Notes: generated by a model not told the origin, from the sequence alone. Counted from the first letter of the stretch, positions 10,119-22,101 are shown. The stretch: DNA of 24,456 nt from Frankiaceae bacterium (GCA_030840615.1 JAVEEE010000136.1:1-24456), one strand, 5' to 3'. Numbers and translations: made by a program.

Positions 10119-11561
10119 ATGACGACCGTGTCGCCGGTGGAGCTCCGCTCGCGCGCGGTCGACGTGCTGTGCGACCCCGCACTTGCCGAGGTAGTCGACC
10201 TCGTCGCGTGGCAAGAAGGCGACGCAGTGCTCGTCGCCAACGCCGACGGTTCCGCCCGGCTGACCGCTGCCGGGACCGAGGTGCTGGCCGGGCGCGACCC
10301 GGTCGCGGACCAAGATCCATTGGCGTTCTCGTCGTTGGCGGAAGAGCTGGCCGACCGCTCGCCGCCGAACGCCCGCAACTCCTATCCCGATGCTCATGCG
10401 CGGCTGGCTTCGCTGTTCGCCGCGGATGCCGCCCCCGACCTGGCCGTCGTGCACACCGGCCGGCATTACTGGCCCGACCAGGGCGGCCACGACGGCGAGC
10501 ACGGGTCGTTGTCGGTCGTGCAGTCGCGCGCCCCGCTGCTGCTCTCCGGTGCCGGCGTCACGGAGCGCGGCGTCCTCCAGGCATCGGCACGGGTCGTCGA
10601 CATCGGCCCGACGCTCGCCTGGCTGGCAGGAGTGCCGCTGTCCGCGCTCGGCGGGCTCGACGGGCGGGTTCTCGTCGATGTCCTCGTGCCGGACAGCCGG
10701 CACGTCGTCGGGCTGTTGTGGGACGGCTGCAACTCCAACTCGCTCTACGCCTTGGCCCGGGCCGGCGAGCTGCCCAACGTGGCGCGGCTGCTGGCGCGGG
10801 GATGTGCGTTCAGCGGCGGCGCGATCGCGGAGTTCCCCAGCGTCACACTCGTCAACCACACGTCGGCGCTGACCGGGGTAGGGCCTGGCCGGCACGGCAT
10901 CGTCAACAACGCCTACTTCGACCGTGGTGCCGCCGCCCAGCGGTTGACCAACGACGCGCGGACCTGGCACCGGTGGGCCGAGTGGCTCGCGCCCGGCGTA
11001 CAGACTGTGTTCGAACGTGTCGACGCACCGACCGCATGTGTGAACGAGCCGGCGGACAGCGGTGCGGACTACTCGACGTTCGACCTCGTGCGCGGCGGCG
11101 GGTCGAGAGACGGTGCCGCGTCGATGGACGACATGCTGCCCGACCCGCGGAAGGACCCGCACGCGACACGGGACTACGTCGAAGCGCGCAAGGACTACGC
11201 GTGGTCGTCGTCGGTCGACGCGATCGGGCTCGAGCAGATGCTCTCGCTGTGGCCGTCGGCCCGCGAGGCGCCGCGGCTGACGTGGTGGAACACGCTGCTC
11301 ACCGACACCGGTCATCACGCCGGCGGGCCGCACTCGGCGATCGCGCACGCCGCTATGCGGGATGCCGACAACCGGTTGGGCGTGTTCCTTGATCACGCCG
11401 AGCGCATCGGTGCGCTCGACGAGATGACGATCGTGTTGACGAGTGATCATGGGTCAGAAGGCGCGGACCCGACCTGCGTCGGCGACTGGGACGAGCCGCT
11501 GCGTGACGCAGGCATCACGTTCCGCGACGAGGCCTACGGCTTCCTCTACCTGAACTGTTGA
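10119..11561 (+). CDS. Alkaline phosphatase superfamily nucleotide pyrophosphatase/phosphodiesterase, apparently circularly permuted
   Basis: Motifs LWDG, FPSVTLVNH, TDTGHH, TSDHG and GEHGSL are all present but in permuted order. TAGTGT lies 6 nt before the ATG. Confidence 0.88.
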   Translation: MTTVSPVELRSRAVDVLCDPALAEVVDLVAWQEGDAVLVANADGSARLTAAGTEVLAGRDPVADQDPLAFSSLAEELADRSPPNARNSYPDAHARLASLFAADAAPDLAVVHTGRHYWPDQGGHDGEHGSLSVVQSRAPLLLSGAGVTERGVLQASARVVDIGPTLAWLAGVPLSALGGLDGRVLVDVLVPDSRHVVGLLWDGCNSNSLYALARAGELPNVARLLARGCAFSGGAIAEFPSVTLVNHTSALTGVGPGRHGIVNNAYFDRGAAAQRLTNDARTWHRWAEWLAPGVQTVFERVDAPTACVNEPADSGADYSTFDLVRGGGSRDGAASMDDMLPDPRKDPHATRDYVEARKDYAWSSSVDAIGLEQMLSLWPSAREAPRLTWWNTLLTDTGHHAGGPHSAIAHAAMRDADNRLGVFLDHAERIGALDEMTIVLTSDHGSEGADPTCVGDWDEPLRDAGITFRDEAYGFLYLNC

Positions 11562-11646
11562 GTGCGGGGCCCCCACGACCCGGTTGAACTCGATGGGTTG
11601 AGGAACCTTCCTTGCGCCCGAGGGCGCGGGTCGGCAGGTTTGCCGC

Positions 11647-12471
11647 ATGCGCTCCCAGCAGCTGGTCATCCGGCTTCAGGCTGTCGTCACGGCTGCGGTG
11701 CTCTGCGCCGGCGTCGTCGCCACCGTCACCCACGACAACAGCACCCGGGGCGTACCCGTCGCCGGCGGGCAGGTGCTGCGACTCGTCCAGCGGGCTCCGC
11801 TGCAGATCGACCAAGCCGCGTCGGTTCGGATGGACATGAGCCTGCACATCTCCGGCGACGGCGTTGACGGGAGCGTGCACGTCGAGGCCGAGTTCGACCC
11901 GCAGAGCAAGGTGGGCGAGGGCAGCGCAGATGCGGCCGGCCACACGCTTCGCTACATGCAGTCCGCAGACACGCTGTACGCGCCCATCGCCGAGGGCCAG
12001 ACGCTGATCTACTCGGGCAAGCACTACGTGGGTCTGACGATCAGCGGCGGCCAGTCCGACCAGCTCACCGGCTCGGACGGTCTGGGATATCTCCAGCTGC
12101 TCGCCGGCGCCGGCGGCCAAGTGCTCCGCTACGAGACGTCGACGATCGACGGCGTCCATGTGACGCGGTACCACGTGAACGTCGACGTGGCAGCGGCACT
12201 CGCGCGTACGCCGGAACAGCTGCGGAGCACGTATGCAGACCAGCTGTCCACGCTCGGCCTCACGACAATTCCCTTGGACGTCTGGCTTGATGACCAGGGC
12301 TCGCCGCGACAACTGAAGCTGAGTCTCACGGCGCAGGGGACGACGGCCGAGATCCTCATCCATCTGACCCCGTCCGACAAGCCGGTCCACGTCGAGCTGC
12401 CGTCCGCCGACGACGTCTACATGGCGAGCAGCGCCCAGGAGTTCGCCGCCATCGCCTACGGCGTCAACTAA
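11647..12471 (+). CDS. Membrane-anchored/secreted protein, LppX/LprAFG-like beta-sheet fold (tentative)
   Basis: N-terminal hydrophobic helix. Patterns ETSTIDGVHVTRYHVNVD and IPLDVWLDDQGSPRQL resemble LolA/LppX-like actinobacterial proteins. Confidence 0.6.
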   Translation: MRSQQLVIRLQAVVTAAVLCAGVVATVTHDNSTRGVPVAGGQVLRLVQRAPLQIDQAASVRMDMSLHISGDGVDGSVHVEAEFDPQSKVGEGSADAAGHTLRYMQSADTLYAPIAEGQTLIYSGKHYVGLTISGGQSDQLTGSDGLGYLQLLAGAGGQVLRYETSTIDGVHVTRYHVNVDVAAALARTPEQLRSTYADQLSTLGLTTIPLDVWLDDQGSPRQLKLSLTAQGTTAEILIHLTPSDKPVHVELPSADDVYMASSAQEFAAIAYGVN

Positions 12472-12709
12472 ACCGCCTCAGCCGGCTTGGCGGCCCAACA
12501 CCCGCCGCTGACGTGGAACGCGGCGTTCAGCCGGACTTGTTCTGCTGTTCTTGATCGTCGCCGAGACTCGCCACATCCAATTCTGTCGAGCCGGTGCTTT
12601 CCTCCGCCACCTGTGCAAGGGTGAGGCCGCTGGCGTGCCGGGACCGGTCCGGACCTCGTGCTTACTTGGCCGCTGTCTTACGACCGAGCGCGAACGACGA
12701 CGAGGACGC

Positions 12710-13048
12710 ATGATTTTTCCACCCAATCCGCTCGACGGTTCTGCGACGTATCGCCGTCGCGCCCGACGCTTCGTCGCCTTCGCCTTCCTTGTCGCGGTTT
12801 GCTTCGCAGCGACGGGCGGCGTCGCCGCGCTGCCTGCCGCGCATGCAGCCCAGGCCCAGGTTCAGGACAAGTCCGGGGCGGGCGCTCCAGCCGGCGAAGA
12901 TCCGGCTGAACGCGACGCCGTCAACGGCAAGCTCGGCTATCACGAGAACCGCAACTATCCCTACGGCCTGATCGGCTTCCTGCTGGTGCTGACGCCCGTC
13001 GTTCTCATTGCTGCGCGGCGCTGGAAGTCTACGGAGGGAGACGCGTGA
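12710..13048 (+). CDS. Small secreted protein with C-terminal TM anchor (112 aa)
   Basis: GAGGA RBS. Basic n-region, hydrophobic core and AHA/AQA cleavage-like site, then YPYGLIGFLLVLTPVVLIA followed by RRWK. GTGA overlap with the next gene. Confidence 0.7.
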   Translation: MIFPPNPLDGSATYRRRARRFVAFAFLVAVCFAATGGVAALPAAHAAQAQVQDKSGAGAPAGEDPAERDAVNGKLGYHENRNYPYGLIGFLLVLTPVVLIAARRWKSTEGDA

Positions 13049-14208
13049 CGACACTCGCTCCCGAGGAGATCACCCTGCGCAGCGCTCTTCACCCCGCTGC
13101 AGCCACCCGCGCCATGGTCACGTCGGCGGATCGGCCGCGGCTCACCTGGCACCAGGACGTCCTCACCTGCCTGCTGTGCACCTGGCTGATGATGGGCCTC
13201 TTCATGGACGCCTGGGCGCACACCAACCAGACAACCCTCGACTCCATCGCGACGCCGTGGCATGGCCTGTTCTACGGCAGCTTCCTGGCTCTCGCGTCGT
13301 GGATCCTCTGGCACCTGCGCTGGCATCACGACGCTGGTCACCGCGGCCTCGCGGCCATCCCGGTCGGTTACGGCGGCGCGGTGCTCGGTCTCATGATCTT
13401 CAGCGTCGGGGCGATCGGTGACCAGGTCTGGCATCTCACCCTCGGCATCGAGCGCGATCTGAAGGCGTTTCTCAGCCCGACGCACCTGCTGCTGATCATC
13501 GGCATGTTGCTGATGGTCAGCGCTCCACTGCGGTCGCAGTGGTCGCGTCCCGGCCCGATGGCCCCGACGTTCCGGCAGTTCCTGCCGGCGATCTGGTCGC
13601 TGACGTTGACGATGATGCTCACCGGCATCGCCTACAACTACGCCTACATCTACCCGAGCGGTCTGGTGACGATCGGCCAGAAGGGGTTCGTGCAGGGCTT
13701 CCCCGGTCAGACGTCGATCCCGCTGCTCAATGTCTTCTCGGCCAGGTTCGAGGTGCAGGGCCTGCTGATGATGCACATGACGACGTTCATCCTTGTGCTG
13801 CCCATCCTCGTCGCGTTGCGGCGATGGCGTCGACTGCCCTTCGGCAGCATCACGCTGCTCGTCACCACGGTGACCGGCGCGGTGCTGGAGATCTTCCAGT
13901 ACTCCTTCGGCTGGACCCTGCTGGCGGCCGTCATCGGCGGACTCGCCATGGACCTGTTGGCCCGGGCGTTGAAGCCCAACACCTCATCCGTCTGGGCATT
14001 CCGGACGTTCGCCCTGCTGGCGCCGATGGTGCTGTGGATCCCCTACTTCGTCGTCATCGCGATCGCCTATCACGTGGGATGGCCGCTCGAGCTGAGCACG
14101 GGAAGCACGGTGCTGACCGGCTTCGCGACGTTGGCGATGAGCTTCCTGGTCGCGCCGTCGCCGATCCCGCCCTACACCGACAGCGCAGTCAGCGAGGCCA
14201 CGGCATGA
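13045..14208 (+). CDS. Polytopic membrane protein with two D-x3-H...P-x-H putative metal-binding motifs
   Basis: 387 aa with roughly 9-10 hydrophobic segments; motifs DAWAH...TPWH and DQVWH...SPTH. Confidence 0.8.
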   Translation: MTTLAPEEITLRSALHPAAATRAMVTSADRPRLTWHQDVLTCLLCTWLMMGLFMDAWAHTNQTTLDSIATPWHGLFYGSFLALASWILWHLRWHHDAGHRGLAAIPVGYGGAVLGLMIFSVGAIGDQVWHLTLGIERDLKAFLSPTHLLLIIGMLLMVSAPLRSQWSRPGPMAPTFRQFLPAIWSLTLTMMLTGIAYNYAYIYPSGLVTIGQKGFVQGFPGQTSIPLLNVFSARFEVQGLLMMHMTTFILVLPILVALRRWRRLPFGSITLLVTTVTGAVLEIFQYSFGWTLLAAVIGGLAMDLLARALKPNTSSVWAFRTFALLAPMVLWIPYFVVIAIAYHVGWPLELSTGSTVLTGFATLAMSFLVAPSPIPPYTDSAVSEATA

Positions 14209-14381
14209 ACATCGGCTGGCAGGGCCTGGCGATCTTCGCGGTCGCGCTGCTGCTCGTGTTCGGTTTCACGCGATGGGGCGAGATCGTTCGCTCGTTGCAC
14301 CGTGCCCAGAAGGAGTTCCGCGGCCACGCCCGCACGGCGGCCCCCGCACGCGAGCATCCGGAGGACGTCGGTCATACCTGA
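14205..14381 (+). CDS. TatA/E-like twin-arginine translocase subunit (58 aa)
   Basis: IGWQGLAIFAVALLLVFG TM helix with the FG hinge, followed by an amphipathic helix ending in KEFR. ATGA overlap with the upstream gene. Confidence 0.65.
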   Translation: MNIGWQGLAIFAVALLLVFGFTRWGEIVRSLHRAQKEFRGHARTAAPAREHPEDVGHT

Positions 14382-14435
14382 TCCTCAGCTGACCCGATCG
14401 GAACCACAGATGTGCCGATGGAATGAAGGAGTGAC

Positions 14436-15854
14436 ATGACCGAAACCGTGACCGTGCCACCGGTCGAGCAACAGAGCATCTCGACCGATGCCGCTCGCCT
14501 GCTTGCTACGACGACCAAGTCCGTCCCGCAGAACGTCGGCAACAGTCCGCGATGGTTGCTGTCGCTGCTGCCGTGGATGGCGCTGGACGCAGGGACGTTC
14601 CGGGTCAACCGGCGCAAGGTCATCGCGCCGCCTCCGCGCCGGGTGCACGCCACGGTCTCGGGTGCGAGCGCGACCGTCGATCCGGCCCAGCTGAAGGCTG
14701 TTCCGATCTTCCGTGGCCTGCCCGACGACGCGCTTGCGGCGATCGCATCGCGGCTGACCGTCGAGCAGCACGCTGCGGGTGACACGGTTCAGCAGGAAGG
14801 TGCGCCGAGCCGCTTCGTCATCGTGGCAGACGGCAAGGTGGAGGCCGTCGGCAGCGACCCGCACGGCCTCGACATCCGACTGGCCCTGCTCGGTGCCGGC
14901 ACCTACATCGGTCAGGAGGCGTTGGTCCGCAGCGACACGCCATCGGCGGCCACCGTCCGTGCCTCGACGCCCACAACACTGCTCGTCCTCACTCGTGAGA
15001 GCTGGGACGCGATCGCGAGCAACGGGGTCGGCGTCGCCGACGCGATGGCCGAGATGGCGATGGTCACGGACATGGCCAACCAGTTCGGTGAGCGTGAGAT
15101 CGAATTGCAGTCCGGACACGAGGGCGAGGTGGAGATCCCCGACACCTTCGTCGACTACGAGGACGACCCGCGCGAGATCGGGCTCAACATCGTGCAGACG
15201 GTGCTCCGGGTGCACACCCGTGTCACCGACCTCTACAACTCCCCCCACGACCAGCTCAACCAGCAGCTTCGACTGACCGTCGAGGCGATGAAGGAACGCC
15301 AGGAGTGGGACCTCATCAACCACCCCGAGACCGGGTTGATCGGCCAGACGGCGCCGAGCATGCGGCTCAAGGCACGGCGCGGTGCGCCCACGCCGGACGA
15401 CATGGATGAGCTGCTGACTCTGGTCTGGAAGCAGCCCGCGTTCTTCCTCGCCCATCCTCGCGCCATCGCCGCGTTCGGTCGCGAATGCACGCGACGGGGT
15501 GTGCCACCGCCCACGGTGCAGATGTTCGGCTCACCGTTCCTGACCTGGCGCGGGGTGCCCCTCGTCCCGTCGGACAAGATCGGGTTGCGGGCCGGCTCCA
15601 ACAGTGGCGGGCGAACCAGCATCCTGCTGATGCGCGTTGGTGCGGAGCGCCAAGGGGTTGTCGGGCTGCATCAACCCGGGCTGCAGGACGAGATGCCCGG
15701 TAGCCCGAGCCTGTCGGTGCGGTTCATGGGCATCAACCAGACCGCCGTGTCGTCGTACCTGCTGACGCTGTACTCGTCCGTGGCTGTCATGACGGACGAC
15801 GCTCTCGGTGTCCTCGAGGACGTCGAGGTCGGTCGCTACCATGAGTACGAGTAA
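14436..15854 (+). CDS. Family 2B encapsulin shell protein with cNMP-binding-domain insertion
   Basis: Family 2 (SrpI/MMP-I) motifs LATTTKSVPQ, SPRWLLSLLPW, RVNRR, SGHEGE, VLRVHTRVTDLYNSPHDQ, GAPTPDDMDELL, WRGVPLVPSDK and VEVGRYHEY. An inserted CBD runs from AVPIFRGL to LLVLTRESW. AAGGAG RBS. Confidence 0.95.
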   Translation: MTETVTVPPVEQQSISTDAARLLATTTKSVPQNVGNSPRWLLSLLPWMALDAGTFRVNRRKVIAPPPRRVHATVSGASATVDPAQLKAVPIFRGLPDDALAAIASRLTVEQHAAGDTVQQEGAPSRFVIVADGKVEAVGSDPHGLDIRLALLGAGTYIGQEALVRSDTPSAATVRASTPTTLLVLTRESWDAIASNGVGVADAMAEMAMVTDMANQFGEREIELQSGHEGEVEIPDTFVDYEDDPREIGLNIVQTVLRVHTRVTDLYNSPHDQLNQQLRLTVEAMKERQEWDLINHPETGLIGQTAPSMRLKARRGAPTPDDMDELLTLVWKQPAFFLAHPRAIAAFGRECTRRGVPPPTVQMFGSPFLTWRGVPLVPSDKIGLRAGSNSGGRTSILLMRVGAERQGVVGLHQPGLQDEMPGSPSLSVRFMGINQTAVSSYLLTLYSSVAVMTDDALGVLEDVEVGRYHEYE

Positions 15855-17727
15855 CGGCAACGGCGCCCACGACGGCTCGAGCAATGCCGCCAGCAACGGC
15901 CACGGCCCGGTCGGGCCGCTGGGTGCACCGTCCGCGGAGTGGCTGGCTCAGCTGGCCAACTCGATGTTCCGGCTGCCGCCGTCCGGTGTCGCCGATGCCG
16001 GAACGTCGCCGGCCGTGGCCTCGGCGCCGACGAGTGACCCGCACGCCGCTGTGACGACGACTCCTGTCATCACGGCGCCGGCGCCGCCGGTGCCGACAGG
16101 AGCGCCGCACAGTCCGGTAGCACCGCCCGGCATGCCGGTGTCGGCCGAGCCGTTGACCGACCCGACGGCCGCGTATTACTTCCTCGGCAGCGCGACCAGC
16201 GGCTCGCCGTTGGGCGCGGTTGCGGAGGGTATGCCCGTGCCGGCGGACGCTGCGTCGACGGCGTCGAGCGACCCCTATGCCGCCCTGACGACAGCTCCTG
16301 CGACCACGGCGCCGAAGCCGCCGGTGCCGACAGTCGTGCCGCACAGTCCGGCGGCACCGCCCGGCATGCCGGTGTCGGCCGAGCCGTTCACCGACCCGAC
16401 GGCCGCGTACTACTTCCTGACCGGCCCGGCCGACGGGTCGGCGTCAGGCATGCCGGCGGCACCGGCGCAGCCGCCGGGTCCGGCGTGGCTATCTCCGGGG
16501 GTCGCGGGCGACCCGAGTGTCACGGCCGCCCGCGCGGACTTCCCCGCGCTGCACCAGCAGGTGCACGGCAAGCCGCTGATCTGGTTCGACAACGCGGCGA
16601 CGACGCAGAAGCCACGCGCTGTGATGGACGCCCTGACGCACTTCTACGAGCACGACAACTCCAACGTGCACCGAGGCGCGCACACGCTCGCCGCTCGGGC
16701 GACCGATGCCTATGAAGGCGCGCGCGCAAGCGTTGCCCGGCTGCTCGGCGCGAGCAGCCCCGAGGACATCGTGTTCGTCCGGGGCACGACCGAGGGCATC
16801 AACCTGGTGGCGCAGAGCCTCGGCCGGCAAACCGTCGGCCAGGACGACGAGATCGTGGTGACCACGCTCGAGCACCACGCGAACATCGTGCCCTGGCAGA
16901 TGCTCGCGAAGGAGAAGGGCGCCAAGCTTCGCGTCGTCGAGGTCGACGACAGCGGCCAGGTCCTGCTCGACCACTACGCGAGCCTGCTCAACCCGCGCAC
17001 CCGGATCGTCGCCCTGAGTCACGTGTCCAACGCGCTTGGCACTGTCTTGCCGGTCGAGCAGATGATCGCGATGGCCCACAAGTTGGGCGTGCCGGTCGTG
17101 GTCGACGGCGCGCAGTCCGTTGCGCACATGCCGGTCGACGTCAACGCACTCGACGCCGACTTCTACGTCTTCTCCGGGCACAAGATCTTCGGCCCGACCG
17201 GCATCGGGGCCGTCTACGGTCGGCGTGACTTGTTGGAGAGCATGCCTCCGTGGCAGGGCGGCGGCAGCATGATCCGCGACGTCACGTTCGACGCGACCGT
17301 CTACAACGACCCGCCCTACAAGTTCGAGGCCGGGACGCCGTCGATCGCCGACGCCGTCGGTCTGCGCGCCGCGGTGGACTACGTCATGAGCCTGGGCATG
17401 CCGCGCATCTTCGCGCACGAGCAGGCACTCACGCAGACGTTGATGCAGACGCTCGGATCGATCCCGGGCGTGCGCCTCATCGGGACAGCCGCGGACAAGG
17501 TTGGCGTGGCGTCGTTCGTCATCGACGGCATACCGACCGAGCGGATCGGCACGATGCTCGACCAGCAGGGCATCGCCGTACGCTCCGGCCATCACTGCGC
17601 GCAGCCGGCGCTACGTCGTTTCGGGCTCGAGAGCACGGTTCGCCCGTCGCTCGCTTTCTACAACACCGACGCCGAGATCGAGACCCTGGGTCGCGCGGTG
17701 CGCGACATCACCCGCAGCGTGCACTGA
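15841..17727 (+). CDS. sufS: Encapsulin cargo cysteine desulfurase (SufS group II) with about 240-aa Pro/Ala-rich N-terminal cargo-loading extension
   Basis: Motifs WFDNAATTQKP, SNVHRG, FSGHKIFGPTGIG (PLP Lys) and RSGHHCAQP (catalytic Cys), plus N-terminal LAQLANSMF. 14-nt overlap with the encapsulin gene. Confidence 0.95.
   Translation: MSTSNGNGAHDGSSNAASNGHGPVGPLGAPSAEWLAQLANSMFRLPPSGVADAGTSPAVASAPTSDPHAAVTTTPVITAPAPPVPTGAPHSPVAPPGMPVSAEPLTDPTAAYYFLGSATSGSPLGAVAEGMPVPADAASTASSDPYAALTTAPATTAPKPPVPTVVPHSPAAPPGMPVSAEPFTDPTAAYYFLTGPADGSASGMPAAPAQPPGPAWLSPGVAGDPSVTAARADFPALHQQVHGKPLIWFDNAATTQKPRAVMDALTHFYEHDNSNVHRGAHTLAARATDAYEGARASVARLLGASSPEDIVFVRGTTEGINLVAQSLGRQTVGQDDEIVVTTLEHHANIVPWQMLAKEKGAKLRVVEVDDSGQVLLDHYASLLNPRTRIVALSHVSNALGTVLPVEQMIAMAHKLGVPVVVDGAQSVAHMPVDVNALDADFYVFSGHKIFGPTGIGAVYGRRDLLESMPPWQGGGSMIRDVTFDATVYNDPPYKFEAGTPSIADAVGLRAAVDYVMSLGMPRIFAHEQALTQTLMQTLGSIPGVRLIGTAADKVGVASFVIDGIPTERIGTMLDQQGIAVRSGHHCAQPALRRFGLESTVRPSLAFYNTDAEIETLGRAVRDITRSVH
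16033..16419 (+). repeat. Intragenic direct repeat, two 153-nt copies (16033-16185 and 16267-16419), period 234 nt
   Basis: SDP...PPGMPVSAEP(L/F)TDPTAAYYFL is duplicated; 41 of 51 aa are identical by manual alignment. Confidence 0.95.
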
Positions 17728-17742
17728 CGAAGCCGGCGAGGG

Positions 17743-19158
17743 TCAGCGCCGGGCGGTGACCTTCTTGGCTGGGGCCTTCTTGCCCACCGTGACCTTCTTG
17801 GCGGGCGCCCTCTTGCGGGTGGGGGGTGCTTCGGTGACGTCGATCGTCGGGTGGGGGAGCTCCTCGCGGGCGGCTTCGCGGAACTGCTTGCGCGGGTTTT
17901 CCATGTCGCCGAGTGACACGACCTCTCGGCGGAACAGCAGGGCCACCGACCAGTCGATGACGACCTGCAGCTTGCGCGCGGTGGTCGGCATCCGGCTGAC
18001 GTGGTAGAGCCGGTGCATCAGCCACGCGGGCATTCCCTTGAGCTTGACGCCGTAGACCTTGGCCGCCCCTTTGTGTAGACCGAGGCTGGCCACCGATCCG
18101 GCGTAGGAGTGCTTGTAGGCCTTCGGCTCCTTGCCGCGCTGGACCGCGGCGATGTTCTTGGCGAGTCGCGCGGACTGGCGGACGGCGTGCTGCGCGCTGG
18201 GACTGCACGATGCTCCGGGAGTCGAGAGGTCGGGGACGTTGGCGATGTCGCCCGCGGCCCACACGCCCGGCAGGTCCTTGACGCGCATCATCTCGTCACA
18301 CATCACCCGCTTGCGTTCGTCGAGTGGCAGGTCGCTGCGCTCGACGACCGGGTTGGGTCGTACGCCGGCCGTCCACACGATCGTCCCGGCTTCGAACGCG
18401 TCACCGTCGTCGAGCTGCACAAGCCCCTTGGCGATCGAGACAACCCGTCGTCCGAGCCGGAGGTCGAACCCTCTGCGTTCCAGCTGCTTGCGGGTGTACT
18501 CGCCCATCTCGGGCCCGATTTCCGGGAGAATGTGGTCGTTCGCCTCGACCAGCACCCAGCGCATCAGCTCCGGCTTCAGCCGCGGGTAGTAGCGCAGCGC
18601 GTATCGCGCCATGTCCTCGAGCTCGGCGATGGTCTCCACGCCGGCGTAGCCGCCGCCGACGAATGCGAACGTCAGCGCCTTGCGCCGGACGTGCTCGTCC
18701 TCTGTCGTCGACGCCACGTCCAGCTGGCTGAGCACGTGGTCGCGCAGGTAGATCGCCTCCGGCAAGGACTTGAGGCCGATGGCGTGATCAGCCAGACCGG
18801 GCACCGGCAGCGTGCGCACGATCGATCCGGCCGCGACGACGAGGACGTCGTATCCGACCTTCCGAGCCGGCCCGGAGGTAGGCCGCAGGGTCACCTGTCG
18901 CGACGCGTGGTCGATGTGCGTCACACAGCCGGTGAGGATCTCGCAGCGGTGCAGCACCTTGTGCAGGGCGACGACGACGTGCCGCGGCTCGATGCTCCCG
19001 GCCGCGGCTTCCGGCAGGAACGGCTGGTAGGTCATCCGGGCATGCGGGTCGATCACCGTGATCGACACCTTGCCCCTGCGGGCCAGCTTCTGCAGCCGGT
19101 GCGCCGTGTAGAGCCCCACGTAGCCGCCACCGACGATGAGGATGCGGGGCGTCGACAT
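17743..19158 (-). CDS. ndh: Type II NADH dehydrogenase / NAD(P)-FAD oxidoreductase with basic C-terminal tail
   Basis: Motifs ILIVGGGYVG, YQPFLPE, YDVLVVAAGS, FVGGGYAGVE, VWTAGV, VWAAGD and AQHAVRQ. Confidence 0.92.
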   Translation of the reverse strand: MSTPRILIVGGGYVGLYTAHRLQKLARRGKVSITVIDPHARMTYQPFLPEAAAGSIEPRHVVVALHKVLHRCEILTGCVTHIDHASRQVTLRPTSGPARKVGYDVLVVAAGSIVRTLPVPGLADHAIGLKSLPEAIYLRDHVLSQLDVASTTEDEHVRRKALTFAFVGGGYAGVETIAELEDMARYALRYYPRLKPELMRWVLVEANDHILPEIGPEMGEYTRKQLERRGFDLRLGRRVVSIAKGLVQLDDGDAFEAGTIVWTAGVRPNPVVERSDLPLDERKRVMCDEMMRVKDLPGVWAAGDIANVPDLSTPGASCSPSAQHAVRQSARLAKNIAAVQRGKEPKAYKHSYAGSVASLGLHKGAAKVYGVKLKGMPAWLMHRLYHVSRMPTTARKLQVVIDWSVALLFRREVVSLGDMENPRKQFREAAREELPHPTIDVTEAPPTRKRAPAKKVTVGKKAPAKKVTARR

Positions 19159-19266
19159 CGCCGTCGCTACCCCCTTCGGTCAGGCCGCTGAACCGGATTC
19201 CACCGTAGTGGGCGGCTTGGCGCGCCGCAGCAGCTTCATCAAGTTGAAGAGCGACATGATGACGGC

Positions 19267-20340
19267 GTGAGCCTCCTGCCCGACCTGCCCTTCTGGGCGG
19301 AGTTACTCGTGTTCGCCGCCGCCGCGGTCACCATCTGGGTGGCCGGCATCTTCCTGTCGAACTACACCGATGTCCTCGCCGAACGGATCCATCTCGGCCA
19401 GGCGTTGGGCGGCCTGATCCTGCTGGCGGTGGCAACCAACCTGCCGGAGATCGCCATCACCTACACGGCGGCAGCGAGTGGCCACCTCGACATCGCCGTC
19501 AGCAACATTCTCGGCGGGATCGCTATCCAGACCGCGCTGCTTGCGGCGCTCGACGCATTCGGTGTGCGGCAACGACGCCCTCTCACCTATCAGGCCGCCA
19601 GTCTCACCCTCGTCATCGAAGGTGCGGTCGTGCTCGCGGTGCTGGTCGCTGTCGTGATGGGCACGCAGCTGCCCGACACGCTCATCAAGTTCCGGCTCAC
19701 CCCGGACGTCGTGCTCATCACGGTCATCTGGGTGACCGGGCTCGTGCTCGTCCAACGCGGTGGCGGTGCCCTGCCGTGGTCCAACTGTGGCGAGGCACCG
19801 GACAGCCAGCCGGAACCGCGCGGGCACTCCCGCACGAAGACGGCGGACAAAGCCGCGGACAAAGGTGTGAGCACCACGAAGGTGCTGGTCGTGTTCAGCG
19901 TTGCAGCGCTCGCGACACTGGTTGCCGGCGCGCTGGCGGAGGAGAGCGGCAGCGCGGCGGCCGACCACGTCGGGCTCTCCGGCGTCGTGTTCGGTGCCAC
20001 CGTGCTCGCCGCCGCAACCGCACTGCCCGAGCTGAGCACCGGCCTCACCGCGGTCCGGATGGGTGACTACAAGCTGGCCTTCGGCGACATCTTCGGCGGC
20101 AATGCGTTCCTTCCGGTGCTGTTCCTGCTCGCCGTGCTCGTCTCGGGCAAGCCGGTGCTGCCGCATGCGCACGCGACGGACATCTACCTGACCGGGCTCG
20201 CGGCACTGCTCACGGTCATCTACGTGGCCGGGCTGGTCTTCCGCCCCGCGAAGCAGCACTTCCGGCTCGGGGTGGACAGCATCACGGTAGTCGTTCTCTA
20301 CGTCCTCGGCATCGTCGGACTGGTCGCACTGCCCGCGTGA
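19267..20340 (+). CDS. Sodium:calcium antiporter (CaCA/YrbG family)
   Basis: Alpha repeats LAVATNLPE...SNILGG and AAATALPE...GDIFGGN; multiple TM helices. Confidence 0.9.
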
Positions 20341-20374
20341 CGACGGCACCGGCGCGCGCAGCAACCTAGACTCG

Positions 20375-20992
20375 ATGCTCGTGCCGCGTCGACGTCTCGT
20401 TCTCGCCTCTGCGTCTCCGGCGCGGTTGCGCCTGCTGCGCGACGCCGGATTCGACCCGGACGTGGTGGTCAGCGGTGTCGACGAGTCGGCCGTCCGGCAC
20501 GAGGACCCGTGGGAGCTTGTCCGCATGTTGGCCGAGCGCAAGGCTCGTGCGGTTGCCATCGACGTCACCGATGACGCGATCGTCGTGGGCTGCGACTCGC
20601 TGCTGCTCTTCGACGGCGCCGCGCTCGGCAAGCCGTCGTCACCACAGGACGCCACGAGTCGCTGGCAGCGCATGCGCGGTCGAACCGGTGCACTGATCAC
20701 CGGTCACTGCGTGGTCGACCCGGCAAACGGTCGGACGGCCGCCGACGTCGCCGACACCGTCGTGCGATTCGGGACGCCGAGCGATGCCGAGATCGCTGCC
20801 TACGTCGCAACGGGGGAGCCGCTTCGCGTCGCGGGAGCGTTCACGCTCGACGGCCGGTCGGCGCCGTTCATCGACGGCATCGACGGTGACCCGGGCAACG
20901 TCATCGGACTGTCACTTCCCCTGTTCCGACGGCTGCTCGCCGAGGTCGACGTCGGCATCACCGACCTGTGGGGGGCGGTGCCGGCATGCTGA
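20375..20992 (+). CDS. maf: Maf family nucleoside-triphosphate pyrophosphatase
   Basis: Motifs [38 protein letters not shown] and NVIGLSL. The start may be GTG 20381, since TAGACT is at 20367-20372. Confidence 0.95.
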
Positions 20993-22101
20993 AGATCGGT
21001 GCGATCGAGGTGGACCCCCCGGTCGTCCTCGCCCCGATGGCAGGGGTCACGAACCCGGCCTTCCGCCGGCTGTGCCGGTCGTATGGCCGCGGCCTCTACG
21101 TGAGCGAGATGATCTCGTCGCGCGCACTCGTCGAGGGCAATGCGAAGACCCGCGCCATGGTGCGCCGAGAGACCGACGCTCCGGTGCACAGCATTCAGCT
21201 CTCCGGAGTCGACCCGGTGGTTGTGGCCCGCGCCGTGCGCATCGTCGTCGAGGACTACGGCGCAGACCACATCGACATCAACATGGGCTGCCCCGTTCCG
21301 AAGGTCACCCGTCTGGGCGGCGGCGCGGCGCTACCCGTCCACCGCAGGCTGCTGCGCGACATCGTTCGCTCGGCAGTCCGCGCCGCCGGCGTCGTACCCG
21401 TCACGATCAAGATGCGTAAGGGCGTCGACGACGACACCTTGACCTACCTGGAGACCGGTGCGATCGCCGAGGGCGAGGGCGTGACCGCCGTCGCGCTGCA
21501 CGCCCGGACCGCGGAACAGCTCTACTCCGGCCGGGCGGACTGGGATGCCATCGCGAGGCTGAAGGAGCATGTGCAGACCATTCCCGTGCTCGGTAACGGT
21601 GACGTGTGGGCTGCGCCGGACGCCGTGCGGATGATGCGGGAGACCGGGTGTGACGGTGTCGTGGTCGGTCGAGGTTGCCTGGGCCGGCCCTGGCTGTTCG
21701 GCGACCTCGAGGCGGCCTACGCCGGAAGGCCGATCGCGCCGCCGCCCGCGTTGGGCGAGGTCGTCGAGGTCATGCGCCGGCACGTCCGTCTCCTCGTCGA
21801 GCTGCAGGGCTCGGAGCACTACGGCGTGAGCGACTTCCGCAAGCATGTGGGCTGGTATCTCACCGGCTACGCCGCCGGGCCGGAGCGCCGTCGCCGACTG
21901 GCTCAGTCGTCGTCGCTCGCGGAGCTCGACGACCTGTTGTATGACCTCGATCCCACGGTGACGTTGCCGGCAGACGCGCAGCATCTGCCGCGGGGACATC
22001 TGCACGGCCCGCGACCCGTGACGCTGCCGGAGGGCTGGCGCGAACAGGCCGACGACCCGACGCCTCCTGCTGGGGCGGACCTTCCCTCCTCGGGCGGCTG
22101 A
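20986..22101 (+). CDS. dusB: tRNA-dihydrouridine synthase DusB
   Basis: Motifs [38 protein letters not shown] and [13 protein letters not shown]. Confidence 0.95.

Follow-up and report, generated by a model that had tools for sequence, protein, structure and literature searches.

A Family 2B desulfurase-encapsulin gene cassette built around an unnamed family of membrane proteins in a Frankiaceae bacterium

Andreas and Giessen catalogued 199 Family 2B cysteine-desulfurase encapsulin operons in 2021 (PMC8346489). Such operons encode a shell protein with an internal domain of the cNMP-binding fold (CBD), followed by a SufS-type cysteine desulfurase (CyD) with a disordered N-terminal domain, and serine O-acetyltransferase and rhodanese are their enriched accessory proteins. 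In a stretch of 24,456 nucleotides from a Frankiaceae bacterium (GCA_030840615.1, JAVEEE010000136.1:1-24456; hereafter the window), we found the same pair of shell and desulfurase at positions 12710-17727 within a five-gene cassette in which those accessories give way to a TatA-like protein, a polytopic membrane protein and a second, small protein with a tail anchor. No bench study of a 2B desulfurase system was found in the literature examined.

The sulfur-storage model that we use for the cassette is taken from desulfurase encapsulins of Family 2A, namely Synechococcus elongatus SrpI (PMC8049743) and Acinetobacter baumannii Enc-CD (PMC10836720), which share the type of cargo enzyme and the loading principle with our cassette but display no CBD insertion and have soluble partners. 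Streptomyces griseus Sg Enc (PMC11550324), on the other hand, possesses a Family 2B shell, whereas its cargo is the terpene cyclase 2-methylisoborneol synthase and no membrane partners have been described. In Sg Enc, the CBDs face outward from the shell and show no binding of cAMP; an unknown ligand was proposed for them (PMC11550324).

Our cassette is a real variant of this known shell/cargo system, apparently unpublished, and is built around an unnamed family of membrane proteins. It comprises the following features, given with position, strand and description:

12710-13048, + strand: gene of a small bitopic protein (112 aa, from the translation)
13045-14208, + strand: gene of a polytopic membrane protein (387 aa, about 10-11 helices)
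14205-14381, + strand: gene of a divergent TatA-like protein (58 aa)
14382-14435, + strand: spacer of 54 nt, carrying a GAAGGAG ribosome-binding site
14436-15854, + strand: gene encoding the Family 2B encapsulin shell (472 aa)
15841-16527, + strand: disordered, Pro/Ala/Ser/Thr-rich N-terminal extension that the desulfurase carries, presumably for cargo loading
16528-17727, + strand: catalytic domain of the SufS-type cysteine desulfurase, dependent on pyridoxal 5'-phosphate (PLP) (TIGR01979, PF00266)

All five genes at 12710-17727 share one orientation, with the desulfurase gene spanning 15841-17727. The genes of the small and the membrane protein join in a GTGA overlap, those of the membrane and the TatA-like protein in an ATGA overlap, and the shell and desulfurase genes overlap by 14 nt; GAAGGAG lies 6 nt 5' of the ATG of the shell gene, inside the 54-nt spacer. 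An original prediction, made from the sequence of this DNA, had described five co-oriented genes with just these overlaps and this gap, and our open reading frames (ORFs) and junctions agree with it to the base. It had also named the products as a small anchored protein, a membrane protein with two motifs, a TatA-like protein, a CBD-containing encapsulin and a SufS with an extension, which is borne out by the translations and family models. Neither rhodanese nor serine O-acetyltransferase domains were detected in the five genes or the flanking ORFs scanned and, as had been stated, no rhodanese, serine O-acetyltransferase or acyltransferase partner is encoded among the main ORFs of the window that were scanned.

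A transcript boundary or promoter within 14382-14435 would have separated the membrane genes from the shell gene, but no terminator-like or sigma-70-like site was seen in or around the gap. Promoter and terminator scans of 12300-18000 found nothing, and Rfam had no match in the window or the upstream region. The spacer itself is not conserved, the corresponding genes overlapping at locus L113 and being separated by 11 nt at locus L116. In the window and at these two loci, translational coupling links all five genes or comes close to doing so.

The shell matches NF041163, the model of family 2B encapsulins, with 565.7 bits (cut-off 400). Its HK97/SrpI-like domain (PF19307, 370.3 bits) covers residues 212-467 (about nt 15069-15836) and its CBD-fold insertion (PF00027, 53.2 bits) residues 111-194 (about nt 14766-15017); in the tree, the shell is nested within the desulfurase-type 2B clade. 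The desulfurase matches TIGR01979 (SufS) with 554.8 bits (cut-off 475) over residues 230-625 and PF00266 with 490 bits from residue 247, and its translation reveals SGHK with the PLP lysine and GHHCA with the catalytic cysteine. Against NF041166, the curated model of 2A cargo, it scores 750.9, under the cut-off of 800. A separate housekeeping SufS with 49% identity is encoded on contig C403.

About 229 Pro/Ala-rich residues precede the SufS domain, and a cargo-loading role of such N-terminal domains has been reported (PMC8346489, PMC10836720). Two copies of about 51 aa, each with TDPTAAYYFL at its end, are present in this loading domain; this two-copy repeat is plain in the translation, though it was not reported by Tandem Repeats Finder. 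The presumed shell-binding motif of the loading domain varies in copy number among lineages. Related CyDs bear repeated ...PGYYF... modules, and the desulfurase relative at locus L225 (876 aa, L225:46-2676) has at least four ...GDPGYYF... modules.

Had homologues of the upstream genes never been neighbours of encapsulins in other genomes, the original prediction of one system would have lost its ground. Our searches uncovered 12 loci with the membrane protein beside a 2B shell and/or desulfurase, namely the window, L113, L116, L114/115, L117, L118, L119, L222-224, L225, L035, L207 and L208. Their flanks are unrelated, the membrane protein is 42-73% identical to that of the window, shell identity amounts to 50-80%, and four gene orders occur: colinear; convergent with the TatA-like gene after the CyD gene; convergent with the TatA-like gene before the shell gene; and shell-CyD-membrane with or without a methyltransferase. 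As the linkage is conserved across loci, chance adjacency is excluded. The arrangements, with the identity of the membrane protein, are as follows:

L113, 69%: gene content and order as in the window; flanks with phenylacetate and AsnC-type genes
L116, 73%: gene content and order as in the window; flank with an alcohol dehydrogenase gene
L114, 58%: small-membrane fusion, convergent with the desulfurase/shell pair; TatA-like and shell genes diverge
L117, 53%: small-membrane pair and desulfurase/shell pair convergent; weak TatA-like ORF ahead of the shell gene
L118 and L119, 52-55%: small-membrane convergent with shell-desulfurase-TatA-like
L035 (an Acidimicrobiaceae genome), L208 and L207, about 42%: shell-desulfurase-membrane, with no small or TatA-like gene

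An independent start from the TatA-like profile led to the same linkage, since the two new TatA-like clusters with usable contigs, L222-224 and L225, both display shell-desulfurase-TatA-like convergent with membrane-small. At L117, the 2B shell gene (L117:10725-12151, on a contig of 2.3 Mb) was called as two ORFs of 249 and 224 aa, which indicates a frameshift or an assembly error.

Phylogenetic analysis placed all desulfurase-type 2B shells in one clade (support 100/100), within which the linked shells fall into a subclade of 11 rows (96/83), as three lineages beside two unlinked ones. In the membrane-protein tree, which also took in two very long rows, one of shell and one of desulfurase sequence, that form a meaningless outgroup, the linked lineages are A1 (window, L113, L116, L114 and L117), A2 (L118 and L119) and B (L035, L207 and L208), and a clade A3 of 21 proteins is sister to A2. 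Both trees group the loci alike, so that long co-inheritance with some loss, and not repeated capture, is the simplest history. The twelve loci are not twelve independent events, and the adjacency outlived several rearrangements. The original prediction of a single membrane trio has to be modified, as lineage B has only the membrane protein, 3' of shell and desulfurase, and the sister clade A3 keeps the small and the membrane protein without a shell. In two of the three lineage B loci, a gene of an S-adenosylmethionine (SAM) methyltransferase is located 3' of the membrane gene (L207:2144-2935; L208:7011-7331). Its best matches, all sub-threshold, are DVU_1556, UbiE/MenG and ArsM-type models, a possible clue to methylation of sulfur or metalloid species.

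Neither the membrane protein nor the small protein has a match in Pfam or NCBIfam. The membrane protein carries two D-x3-H...(T/S)P-x-H motifs, D55/H59/H73 and D126/H130/H147, together with E136. In alignment A1, consisting of 25 relatives with identities down to 29%, the invariant columns are D55, W57, A58, H59, T70, P71, W72, H73, D126, W129, H130, E136, S144, P145 and H147, and the distance from D-x3-H to (T/S)P-x-H is 14-17 residues over the two copies. The two metal-type motifs of the original prediction fit these invariant D/H/H sets and E136. In an AlphaFold (AF2) model with a mean predicted local distance difference test (pLDDT) of 87.5 and a predicted template modelling score (pTM) of 0.85, the D/H/H residues lie where the first four long transmembrane helices (TM1-TM4) end, and the charge distribution suggests that loops 62-70 and 134-144 face outside. 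As invariant D/H/H pairs and E136 are found at helix ends in a confident model, the membrane protein most likely carries a one- or two-metal site on the outward face of the membrane.

A search of 5.8 billion proteins yielded 72 relatives of the membrane protein, all of them unnamed, and the wider family numbers at least 586 loci across reference genomes, among them those of Actinomycetota, Chloroflexota, Deinococcota and Paenibacillus. The PDB contains no relative that could be recognized by sequence profile or by fold, and the ESM Atlas returned unnamed clusters only. Shell and desulfurase accompany the membrane protein at one of the 80 best genome loci, L035, and neighbour clustering over these 80 loci gave no universal neighbour of the wider family, but only genus-level synteny. 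An apparent fusion of 813 aa at L085 turned out to be an out-of-frame ORF artefact. In Saccharothrix and Actinosynnema (L039, L041-L043, L045, L053 and L072), a stand-alone gene of the family is located directly 3' of the gene of a LuxR-type response regulator, the two being part of a block conserved across both genera. The homologue P0045 (L208:5017-7014) has a very basic, low-complexity C-terminal tail of about 290 residues rich in Ala, Pro and Arg (residues about 375-665), for which no domain match was obtained.

With a probability of roughly 55%, we regard the cassette as a conserved, undescribed variant of the Family 2B desulfurase encapsulins in which a membrane complex couples the sulfur store to the cell envelope. 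A cytoplasmic shell with its CBD-fold domains on the outside would be loaded with the SufS-type desulfurase via the disordered N-terminal domain. The enzyme would turn cysteine to alanine and, by analogy with the studied desulfurase encapsulins, which store sulfur (PMC10836720), the sulfur would accumulate in elemental form, shielded from reductants. The membrane module would take the place of the soluble partners rhodanese and serine O-acetyltransferase; as the usual operon has sulfur-acceptor and cysteine-supply genes in its stead (PMC8346489), the membrane half may handle the input or output of the sulfur store, be it by transport, by oxidation or by delivery to or from a metal. In the clade of the window, the polytopic core would work with the small tail-anchored subunit, the His/Glu/Tyr motif of which would be positioned just outside the membrane, and with the TatA-derived single-helix protein, which is found only alongside shell genes. 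Most likely, such a membrane complex would act on, supply or dispose of the sulfur species, or a metal partner, that the shell handles. The original prediction had proposed a connection of the shell to an envelope metal site or export route, which might serve Fe-S or Cu supply or metal-sulfide detoxification.

A number of observations weigh against such a coupling. In the wider family, the membrane gene generally stands alone, as 76 of the 80 best genome loci lack both a shell and the small protein within 10 kb, and no relative of known function was found in Pfam, NCBIfam, the ESM Atlas or the PDB. Starting from the shell, we obtained 79 metagenome loci with 2B shells of 43-63% identity, 16 of them with a desulfurase match beside the shell, and no membrane genes were present in the approximately 13 of these 16 that had enough flank; the linkage of membrane and shell genes characterizes certain lineages and not 2B desulfurase operons at large. 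All linked shells belong to one subclade, so that part of the co-occurrence is shared ancestry. Members of clade A3 with readable context (L033, L034 and L209) kept the small gene with no shell nearby, and the genome of L034 contains no SrpI-like gene. Finally, a four-chain complex prediction with shell, membrane, small and TatA-like protein lent no support to binding of the TatA-like protein to the other three, scoring 0.00, a value which by the rule of the tool counts neither way.

These observations bear on an alternative in which two independent functions were co-inherited, the small and the membrane protein as an envelope metalloprotein and the shell with its desulfurase as a sulfur store, both being adjacent by descent from one ancestor. 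The mostly stand-alone membrane family, the shell-less pairs of clade A3, the confinement of linked shells to one subclade and the complex prediction, which lent no support to an assembly, are all in line with it, as are the nearest shell relatives, L126 and L129/L130, which have no membrane genes. Still, we consider it unlikely that nothing but descent keeps the two halves together: the adjacency survived four rearrangements, strand changes and a complete turnover of the flanks at the identities given above, the TatA-like subfamily occurs only where both halves occur, and in the window, L113 and L116 the translation of all five genes is coupled or almost coupled. In the genome of L033 (G041), two SrpI-like shell genes (L204 and L206) are located 7.6 kb apart on another contig (C11:225353-233757).

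Coupling between the shell and the envelope would also involve the two smaller proteins. Hydropathy analysis of the small protein revealed a signal-like segment at residues 18-46 and a C-terminal TM anchor at residues 82-105, with an RRRARRF stretch at the N-terminal hydrophobic segment and RRW after the anchor. The segment predicted to lie outside ends in a conserved G-x-DPAE...NG-x-LGYHE-x-R-x-YPY and includes two cysteines in several homologues. Because this His/Glu/Tyr motif is located directly before the C-terminal anchor, it is probably on the outer side, that is, on the same side as the metal motifs of the membrane protein. In all eight homologues of alignment A2, the small gene is located directly 5' of the membrane gene, and in P0012 of L114 the small and the membrane protein are fused to a single protein of 515 aa. 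A twin-arginine pair (RR) precedes the signal-like segment in five of the eight sequences.

The TatA-like protein is of TatA/TatE size and, like these, has a polar Gln in its N-terminal helix as well as an FG hinge and an amphipathic helix, but it is not encoded beside tatC, scores far below the NCBIfam cut-offs and belongs to a subfamily half of which has lost the hinge. In detail, it displays an N-terminal TM segment with W5-Q6, the FG hinge, an amphipathic helix with RSLH..Q.EFR and the tail PAREHPED. PF02416 was matched with 21.7 bits (cut-off 21) by the protein and with 20.6 bits, below the cut-off, in the genome scan, and the NCBIfam TatA models with 13-22 bits against cut-offs of 54-104. 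In alignment A3, the TatA-like proteins of the window, L113 and L116 all have the TM helix, the FG hinge and the amphipathic helix, whereas those of L118, L119, L222 and L225 lost the hinge and have no Pfam match on record; the subfamily motif RSLH..Q.(E/D)(Y/F)R is retained. A profile search of the 5.8 billion proteins gave about 30 clusters of this subfamily, which is part of a shell cassette in every case with readable context. Its gene always directly adjoins the shell or desulfurase gene, and it is absent from the shell-less clade A3 and from lineage B. The window contains no tatC; a canonical tatA-tatC pair is located on contig C96, with a further TatC fragment on C104, and with a second TatA/B gene elsewhere in the genome, the TatA-like gene of the cassette is a third, very divergent copy.

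These features bear on a dedicated Tat export unit, where the TatA-like protein would be an extra Tat pore subunit that exports the small protein and inserts its tail anchor, the link to the shell being indirect. The TatA architecture, the Pfam match at threshold, a TatC to work with in the genome and the small proteins of the window, L113, L116, L114 and L119, in which RR stands ahead of the hydrophobic segment, would all suit such a unit, but the pieces do not vary together. The small proteins of L117, L118 and L222 have no RR despite a TatA-like gene, while RR is present in L209 in spite of the missing TatA-like gene; the TatA-like gene tracks the shell genes and not the small gene, and both the hinge-less proteins (L118, L119, L222 and L225) and the low NCBIfam scores speak against a Tat pore subunit. 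As the RR motif does not track the TatA-like gene, we rate this export unit as highly improbable; a plain Tat-export explanation fits poorly and is weakly supported at best. The TatA-like protein looks more like a TatA-derived subunit recruited to the shell system.

Regarding the possible chemistry of the polytopic protein, PmoC/AmoC are of interest, having D-x2-W-H ... (T/S)P-x-H at helix ends as well, with a second similar site about 71-74 residues downstream. However, the membrane protein is larger, with 10-11 helices, and reveals no significant similarity to them in sequence, profile or fold. DQVWH...SPTH and DAWAH...TPWH of the membrane protein correspond to DG[AS]WH...TP[SA]H and NEWGH of AmoC at motif level only; in AmoC from 11 actinobacterial genomes, NEWGH is found 74 residues past DG[AS]WH...TP[SA]H. 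Homology is not claimed, as hhalign of alignment A1 against nine actinobacterial AmoC sequences gave a probability of 0.56%. The likeness can be read as a lead about chemistry, not as a sign of family membership. AmoC-family genes were observed in 11 of the 21 sampled genomes of one Actinomycetota family, f30 (L210-L220).

In another alternative, the protein would be a PmoC-like copper enzyme, remotely related or analogous to subunit C of the copper membrane monooxygenases, that oxidizes a small hydrophobic sulfur species originating in the shell, for instance S8, polysulfide, sulfide or a methylated thiol, its substrate being pure conjecture. The shared D-x2-W-H followed by (T/S)P-x-H occurs twice in the membrane protein, the strict pattern being found once in about 4 million residues of the six-frame ORFs of the genome, and clade B adds the SAM methyltransferase resembling UbiE/ArsM types. 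When a model of the N-terminal domain (first 4-5 helices, pLDDT 91) was compared by Foldseek, two AmoC chains were among the top 25 fold matches, 9leg_C reaching the highest template modelling score listed (TMq 0.45); with E-values of 1.2 for 9pxf_G and 2.9 for 9leg_C, these matches are non-significant, and no AmoC appeared in the top 50 of the full-length model. Moreover, PF04896 has no match in the source genome, and no AmoA/AmoB-type domain was found among the window ORFs scanned, the rest of the genome being outside that search. Together with the hhalign result, this makes a PmoC-like enzyme distinctly unlikely in our view.

A bolder form of the preferred reading, in which a membrane complex couples the sulfur store to the envelope, would turn the membrane module into a docking and hand-over station. 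The external CBDs would be bound by the cytoplasmic tail of the TatA-like protein or by polytopic-protein loops, which would hold the sulfur-filled shell at the membrane, and sulfur would be passed to, or oxidized at, an outer PmoC-like metal centre. The CBD fold in other proteins can bind peptides. We consider this docking a long shot. If true, it would represent the first membrane-tethered encapsulin, name the missing ligand of the CBDs and give an emptying route for the sulfur store.

In the literature searched, we found no paper linking a desulfurase encapsulin to TatA-like or integral membrane partners, and no mention of TatA or PF02416 was found in the accessible part of the supplement of PMC8049743. 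Published censuses of encapsulin neighbourhoods grouped the neighbours by Pfam family, and such a grouping cannot register a family that has no model, which would explain why the membrane partner went unreported. The cassette provides the first candidate link between desulfurase encapsulin shells and the cell envelope, and it also brings to light a sizeable polytopic family with no domain model, annotation or similar solved structure, the invariant Asp/His pairs of which suggest a membrane metal centre. Two questions left by earlier work concern how shell-locked sulfur is mobilized again (discussion of PMC10836720) and which ligand is bound by the external CBD-fold domains of 2B shells, cAMP not being bound (PMC11550324). 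By offering three co-inherited membrane partners, the cassette makes both of them testable with a defined five-gene construct.

The source assembly consists of 523 contigs and is 86% complete. The window has a G+C content of about 70%, dropping to 0.655-0.68 over 12-16 kb, and its genes for WhiB, a UvrD helicase bearing an HRDC domain and a mycothiol-type isomerase domain likewise mark it as actinobacterial. Among sequencing runs, near-identical DNA was encountered in soil metagenome DNA runs only. Neither the membrane protein nor an encapsulin turned up in 24 same-family genomes, two of them from the same genus, which gave only CBD-domain matches to unrelated proteins. These two same-genus genomes match the window at 75-80% DNA identity up to about 11551 and from about 20365. 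For 11552-20364, no orthologous DNA was found in the incomplete assemblies of these two and three further same-family genomes, which had only paralogue-level matches to the SufS domain, the NDH-2-like flavoprotein and the cation exchanger; G032, one of the sampled relatives, is unpublished and supplied no more than a negative result and one flavoprotein match, on which no claim is based. Judging from these comparisons, the cassette sits in a variable segment of about 8.8 kb.

The same segment, 11552-20364, also holds genes of an SCO4651-family lipoprotein, a cation/Ca exchanger and an extra NDH-2-like flavoprotein. The latter (17743-19158, - strand) is 59% identical to another copy on C445, and its best NCBIfam match, below the cut-off, is the 'N-terminal to SelD' oxidoreductase family. 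Maf and Dus genes are found near the cassette both in the window (20375-22101) and at L117 (4238-5940), where the membrane protein is 53% identical; this proximity hints at an old chromosomal position rather than a recent arrival. Upstream of the small gene, the elements GAACTGCTGAC and TACGTTGG are common to L113 (1457-1617) and L116 (1540-1654), of which TACGTTGG fits the actinobacterial -10-like TANNNT and lies about 45 nt before the start codon of the small gene. The window reveals just a loose counterpart of this upstream element at 12530-12712, TTACTTGG.

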